This document shows, piece by piece, positions 56,664-57,036 of a stretch of 64,000 nt of DNA. The notes under the pieces were generated by a model. The model did not search any database, was not told the DNA's origin, and saw nothing but the letters and a program-made list of their open reading frames with translations. Numbering within the stretch: position 1 is the stretch's first letter; every line of letters begins with the position of its first letter. A program made the position numbers and the translations under genes. The DNA lies in assembly GCF_056746865.1 (NCBI RefSeq), contig NZ_CM163382.1; one strand, 5' to 3'.

Positions 56664-57036
56664 ATGAAAACATTACCTGTATTACCCGGGCAGGCGGCCA
56701 GTTCTCGCCCGTCTCCTGTTGAAATCTGGCAGATACTGCTGTCCCGACTGCTGGACCAGCACTATGGCCTCACACTGAATGACACACCTTTTGCCGATGA
56801 ACGTGTGATTGAGCAGCATATTGAGGCAGGCATTTCACTGTGTGATGCGGTGAACTTTCTCGTGGAAAAATACGCGCTGGTGCTACCGACCAGCCGGGAT
56901 TCAGCGCCTGTACCCGCTCTCAGTTAATAAACAGCATCGATATCCTCCGGGCTCGCAGGGCGACCGGCCTGATGACCCGCGACAATTACAGAACGGTAAA
57001 TAACATTACCCTGGGTAAGTATCCGGAGGCGAAATG
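56664..57036 (+). pseudogene. cbtA: type IV toxin CbtA, frameshifted near codon 75
   Basis: [26 protein letters not shown]... stops after 87 aa; the expected C-terminus (INSIDILRARRATGLMTRDNYRTVNNITLGKYPEAK*) continues in another frame to 57036. Confidence 0.7.

Follow-up and report, generated by a model that had tools for sequence, protein, structure and literature searches.

The window analysed, a stretch of 64,000 nucleotides from Escherichia coli (contig NZ_CM163382.1, RefSeq assembly GCF_056746865.1), contains the right-hand end of a CP4-44-type genomic island, in which the toxin gene cbtA (yeeV) is a frameshift pseudogene when compared with an otherwise identical intact orthologue. Taken as a whole, the locus is very probably an ordinary and widespread pseudogene allele, which lacks a working FtsZ/MreB-inhibiting toxin through the loss of a single G and in which the antitoxin gene cbeA is intact. 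The frameshift is a common allele and already known, as it is annotated as a pseudogene in RefSeq. No specific discussion of a cbtA/yeeV frameshift allele was found in a literature search.

Identification of a single-base deletion in cbtA

The interval 56664-57037 of the window (forward strand, native stop codon included) was identified as the CP4-44-type cbtA of E. coli by alignment to K-12 and by the RefSeq annotation 'cbtA, frameshifted' at equivalent coordinates. The window holds one CbtA copy and one CbeA copy only. Nucleotide alignment with cbtA of K-12 MG1655 (NC_000913 2077569-2077943 plus flanks) revealed one difference in 485 nt, namely the G of codon 74, which is absent between positions 56883 and 56884 of the forward strand (GTG CGT ACC in K-12, GTG C-T ACC here). 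The deletion lies between GTGC and TACC, a context free of homopolymers that was established from the K-12 alignment and from 17 loci.

When K-12 CbtA was compared with the window by tblastn, residues 1-73 were found at 56664-56882 and residues 75-124 at 56885-57034, each with 100% identity. The first of these segments, on the forward strand in frame 0, was also recovered as part of the open reading frame and as a match to PF06755. It is followed by an out-of-frame tail (56883-56930, forward strand; ORF translation and tblastn) of 14 codons and tandem TAA TAA stops at 56925-56930, giving an ORF of 87 aa (56664-56927) that consists of 73 native and 14 unrelated residues. The second segment, native codons 75-124, is read in the +2 frame of the same strand according to the ORF list and tblastn and is unreachable from the cbtA start codon; in that frame no start codon yields an ORF of at least 30 aa. 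Sense codons run to 57034, after which the native stop codon occupies 57035-57037.

The sequence-only reading of this DNA had described a CbtA ORF that stops after 87 aa and a conserved C-terminus encoded in a different frame, and both points hold; the alignment to an intact cbtA that it called for exposed the single missing G. Its estimate of a deletion of 1-2 nt near 56890 is narrowed to one nucleotide, not two, at a position 6-7 nt upstream of that point, and the end that it gave for the displaced C-terminus, 57036, was off by 1-2 bases.

Distribution of the deletion allele in E. coli

A search of 5426 complete E. coli genomes found the exact 60-nt context of the deletion in 1503 records and the corresponding intact 61-mer, as an exact match, in 1939 records. 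The deletion allele is thus carried by approximately 28%, roughly one in four, of the complete E. coli genomes. Many complete RefSeq genomes match the 373-nt interval at 100% identity, among them those of O157:H7, O104:H4 and O145 strains, where the lesion is identical, cbeA and yeeW are intact and the locus shows no difference from the one described here. In every deletion-allele locus fetched, PGAP had annotated 'cbtA, frameshifted' with a pseudogene flag beside intact cbeA and yeeW. The exact 87-aa product is found in public protein sets on at least 1000 contigs, under the name of CbtA or YeeV toxin.

Single-base indels are the commonest type of assembly error, and the frameshift might therefore have been created in sequencing or assembly from a cbtA gene that is in reality intact. 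This explanation is scarcely credible. The deletion context recurs in 1503 independent records of complete genomes, which come from many lineages and laboratories, the missing base lies outside any homopolymer, a SNP at a distance of 360 nt is linked to the deletion, and the 87-aa product is itself on at least 1000 contigs in public collections. On these grounds a sequencing error was rejected. The lesion is reproduced in independent assemblies and is neither chance nor artefact, because the allele is common to approximately 1500 of them. The suggestion that the frameshift might be private to this DNA, or an error that resequencing would correct, is accordingly set aside: the allele is widespread, is already recorded as a RefSeq pseudogene and apparently has a single origin.

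Origin and spread of the deletion haplotype

At the same chromosomal locus, 11 deletion-allele loci were compared with six intact loci (K-12, KMi025, SK1144, 4/1-1, Nissle 1917 and cq9). The deletion loci sampled are a small set, chosen as 100% matches to cbtA, and the loci L015 and L016 were checked for the allele only. At position 57243 (forward strand) a SNP is fully linked to the deletion, with G in 11 of the 11 deletion loci and A in all six intact ones. The deletion haplotype is nearly invariant from cbeA to approximately position 57800, and the intact alleles show mosaic cbeA segments. Full linkage to the SNP at 57243 points, as the most likely history, to a deletion that arose once and was then passed on by descent and recombination.

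KMi025 has the island closest to the window that also has an IS21-family element, yet its cbtA allele is intact; exchange between deletion and intact haplotypes by recombination, or less likely a recurrence or reversion, has therefore taken place. The intact state is the ancestral one, because R74, D76 and the helix downstream are conserved across the family, with R74, D76 and residues 74-103 kept in members at 32-78% identity. On this evidence, a K-12-type cbtA haplotype would have lost one G in codon 74, most likely once, and the deletion allele would then have reached its present share of complete E. coli genomes via descent and recombination.

Predicted consequence for the toxin

Translation from the cbtA start would yield the 73 native and 14 unrelated residues and stop at TAA TAA. 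The 87-aa ORF covers positions 1-73 of the 112 positions of Pfam PF06755 (CbtA_toxin), all 112 of which are covered by K-12 CbtA; the complete domain is thus not encoded in one reading frame, and 39 of its 112 positions fall in the lost segment. Missing from the product are native residues 74-124, with the nearly invariant R74 and D76, a GF motif that is conserved, the DILRARxATGL helix and the final helix of a predicted five-helix domain.

Conservation of the lost part was assessed in a family alignment of 24 members (32-78% identity) obtained from a search of 1.84 billion representative proteins. In this 24-sequence alignment R74 and D76 are conserved in at least 90% of the members, and the mean fraction of sequences sharing the commonest residue is 0.62 for residues 74-103 compared with 0.60 for residues 18-73. 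At least 70% of the sequences agree at 34 positions, 11 of which sit past the break (R74, D76, F80, D93, I94, L95, A97, R98, A100, G102 and L103). An AlphaFold2 model of intact CbtA built on the same alignment was obtained with good confidence for its residues (pLDDT) and reasonably good confidence for the overall fold (pTM), and showed one compact domain with helices at 18-34, 46-54, 59-70, 91-101 and 109-116. The frameshift removes a conserved loop and the last two of these predicted helices (91-101 and 109-116), and leaves the first three. Neither a sequence search (best E-value 0.12) nor a fold search (no Foldseek match at E <= 0.001) found a solved structure related to CbtA, so that the role assigned to the C-terminus derives from the predicted model and from conservation only. 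An NCBIfam scan of the 87-aa ORF, CbtA, CbeA and YeeW matched zero families. Loss or strong attenuation of CbtA function is the most likely outcome according to the family alignment and the model: the truncated product would most likely misfold or be strongly attenuated, and a working FtsZ/MreB-inhibiting toxin would be lost.

[quoted passage not shown] Both residues are present in the native 1-73 part of the ORF, and the 87-aa fragment might consequently be active, as an inhibitor of FtsZ only or as an attenuated toxin, with the allele being kept by selection. In a passage of a review citing Tan et al. 2011 (PMC3920263), the N-terminus is assigned to FtsZ and the C-terminus to MreB, which would agree with such a fragment, as would the three predicted helices that it retains and an allele frequency of approximately 28%. 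Selection could also account for the absence of further decay among the loci sampled, but this comparison has no power, since 100% identity was the basis on which these loci were chosen and the intact allele varies just as little. Against residual activity, the lost residues 74-103 are conserved like the core, including R74 and D76, and in a compact single-domain model the removal of two helices would probably be destabilising. Furthermore, D40N, which alters a nearly invariant residue, has spread among the truncated copies. An active fragment kept by selection is therefore considered improbable. A more specific form of the idea, in which the fragment would weakly bind FtsZ and/or MreB and serve as a mild modulator of division or as a competitor that blunts paralogous toxins, is rated slightly lower still; if true, an attenuated and selected fragment would help to explain the presence of one haplotype in approximately 28% of genomes of distant lineages.

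The D40N variant of the 87-aa protein (P0153), altered at a position conserved in at least 90% of the family, was found on 418 contigs; a substitution of this kind on a truncated background would fit relaxed constraint, to which it lends weak support. Another 87-aa variant, with I24T and S27T, occurs on 120 contigs and represents a secondary change on the pseudogene background.

Full-length CbtA could in principle still be made in part if programmed -1 ribosomal frameshifting or transcriptional slippage restored the frame. Both frames are open from 56846 to 56924, and a -1 shift in this interval would join them; programmed frameshifting has also been speculated for the neighbouring DUF5983 gene region (2026 paper, PMC13294457). 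Yet no in-frame slippery heptamer of the form X XXY YYZ was found anywhere in 56664-57037, there is no long homopolymer near the site, and a shift elsewhere than at codon 74 would still change conserved residues. The shifted arrangement is not conserved, as the homologues and many E. coli alleles are single-frame, and because the intact allele coexists in the species the deletion is to be read as a mutation and not as a conserved recoding signal. Recoding was rejected as a very unlikely explanation, with no slippery heptamer in cbtA.

Many of the cluster representatives of the CbtA family at 50% identity match only residues ~1-74 or ~83-124, often fused to unrelated sequence (P0006, P0012, P0014, P0017, P0019, P0039, P0080, P0089, P0096, P0099 and others). 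These partial representatives appear to have been produced by gene calling on cbtA copies that are broken or frameshifted, which would inflate the apparent diversity of the family.

The antitoxin gene and paralogous modules

The type IV antitoxin gene cbeA (yeeU) lies at 56207-56575 on the forward strand, starts with GTG and encodes 122 aa, as judged from the ORF list, from comparison with K-12 and from the PGAP annotation of CbeA in all matching genomes fetched. The product is a full-length homologue of K-12 CbeA, with 121 of 122 residues identical, the single change D108G and no gaps, and the earlier description of the antitoxin gene as intact is thereby confirmed. Its end at 56575 and the cbtA start at 56664 place cbtA directly downstream of a YeeU/CbeA-family gene in a CP4-type island. 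Among the deletion loci, which were picked as 100% cbtA matches, cbeA showed two single nonsynonymous changes and zero synonymous ones. As the whole haplotype is almost without variation, and the intact K-12-type allele is as invariant as the deletion allele at these 100%-match loci, a comparison for relaxed selection has no power, and the 'retention' of cbeA cannot be distinguished from there having been too little time for decay.

Two related modules are known at other loci, ykfI-yafW in CP4-6 and ypjF-yfjZ in CP4-57; they share the toxin and antitoxin families of cbtA and cbeA, are absent from the window, and have antitoxins that, like CbeA, cross-neutralise (PMC5371832). K-12 CbeA neutralises the paralogous toxins YkfI and YpjF in addition to CbtA, and YafW and YfjZ neutralise CbtA (Wen et al., PMC5371832). 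A passage of a review citing Masuda et al. 2012 reports that CbeA acts on the FtsZ and MreB polymers and not by toxin binding. Given this activity against YkfI and YpjF and the reported action on the polymers, an antitoxin gene that stays intact beside a broken cbtA could retain its use even without its cognate toxin, or at least do no harm. The sequence-only reading had suggested that an orphan CbeA may neutralise paralogous toxins, which matches the published experiments on the K-12 proteins, and its interpretation of a pseudogenised toxin with an intact antitoxin appears reasonable on the present comparisons.

Among the matches listed, further cbtA-like sequences in the deletion-allele genomes were found in at least two places in 34 of 40 records, with a single cbtA-like place in the other six. 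Strains WG5 and 720632 have only one such place. Strain 50579417 (NZ_CP033884.1) carries two islands with complementary decay (L014, 1201576-1203536, and L015, 47301-49273). In one island cbtA is frameshifted and cbeA is intact; in the other, cbeA has an internal stop and a 378-nt cbtA-family toxin gene is intact. This arrangement is consistent with protection by the antitoxin in trans, and it may be regarded as a natural example in line with the published cross-protection among paralogous type IV modules.

Comparison with K-12 and implications

The locus has the same genes and the same order, yeeS-yeeT-cbeA-cbtA-yeeW, as the cbeA-cbtA (yeeU-yeeV) module of the cryptic prophage CP4-44 of K-12, and the same neighbourhood of tmaR/yeeX, yeeA, sbmC, dacD and sbcB. 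The two modules are nucleotide-identical in cbtA bar one base and share 121 of 122 residues of CbeA; the window differs by the loss of the codon 74 G. Upstream the islands differ, as the window has no flu/yeeR beside yeeS and has a DUF932/antirestriction/dynamin-family/patatin module instead.

The right reading of the locus would be that of RefSeq, a cbtA pseudogene with intact cbeA and yeeW, which is of little importance beyond annotation. A full-length CP4-44 CbtA is nevertheless missing from approximately one in four complete E. coli genomes, among them those of the major pathogen lineages O157:H7 and O104:H4, and results obtained with the K-12 toxin on oxidative stress, persistence and biofilm should for this reason be checked before they are transferred to such strains.

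Neighbourhood of the locus and features of the island

The gene yeeW (DUF5983; 57034-57228, forward strand) is intact and encodes 64 aa according to sequence, ORF and annotation. Its ATG overlaps the native cbtA stop codon (ATGA, 57034-57037), and a GGAGG for yeeW is present at 57025-57029. As translation of the frameshifted cbtA ends 107 nt upstream, any translational coupling between cbtA and yeeW would be lost by the frameshift. A C-terminal remnant of a DUF957 gene (approximately 57262-57354) follows yeeW, within 57034-57354. L014 (1135-1758) has a longer DUF5983 gene, which carries the annotation 'frameshifted', and an intact DUF957 gene comes after it. A programmed frameshift has been proposed to join DUF5983 to an 'AntiFam' ORF adjoining cbtA (2026 paper, PMC13294457).

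Upstream of cbeA, the island carries a DUF932 gene (53969-54790), an antirestriction gene (54872-55351), yeeS (55352-55843) and yeeT (55906-56127). Past yeeW there are remnants of DUF957, transposase and EutP-like genes, and then the core genes tmaR/yeeX, yeeA, sbmC, dacD and sbcB. In place of the flu/yeeR of K-12 CP4-44, a dynamin-family gene (798 aa), an RdcB-family 'diguanylate cyclase regulator' gene and a patatin-like phospholipase gene stand in a row at 48138-52503.

The interval 39381-64000 of the window is approximately 100% identical to strain 50EVA, its closest match, except for a 2.6-kb IS21-family insertion at 44638-47272. This element, with istA/istB-like ORFs at 44759-46405 and 46179-47177, interrupts a 'GTPase family protein' gene of the island 10 kb upstream of cbtA; in strain KMi025 a similar IS21-family element interrupts the neighbouring dynamin-family gene instead. 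Between 55633 and 56182 (the 3' end of yeeS, yeeT and the yeeT-cbeA spacer) the window differs from O157:H7, O104:H4, K-12 and KMi025 by approximately 25 SNPs and a 6-nt insertion (56130-56135). The block is common to strain 50EVA (yeeT variant WP_000692345.1), ends just before cbeA, and appears to be a patch acquired by recombination from a paralogous island.

In the island of strain 50EVA, pseudogenes are annotated further upstream (around 30920 of the window; L016, 3168-4133), comprising a DMT transporter gene interrupted by an internal stop and a gamma-glutamyltransferase fragment, together with ISL3 and IS66 transposase genes. Judging from this annotation, the whole island, beyond cbtA, appears to be decaying. 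In the first 23 kb of the window (1564-22432), four tRNA-Asn(GUU) genes occur at 2645, 18124, 19948 and 22357, with a tRNA-Ser(CGA) gene at 1564; this is the asn-tRNA cluster, known as an integration hotspot and adjoining the CP4-44-type island.
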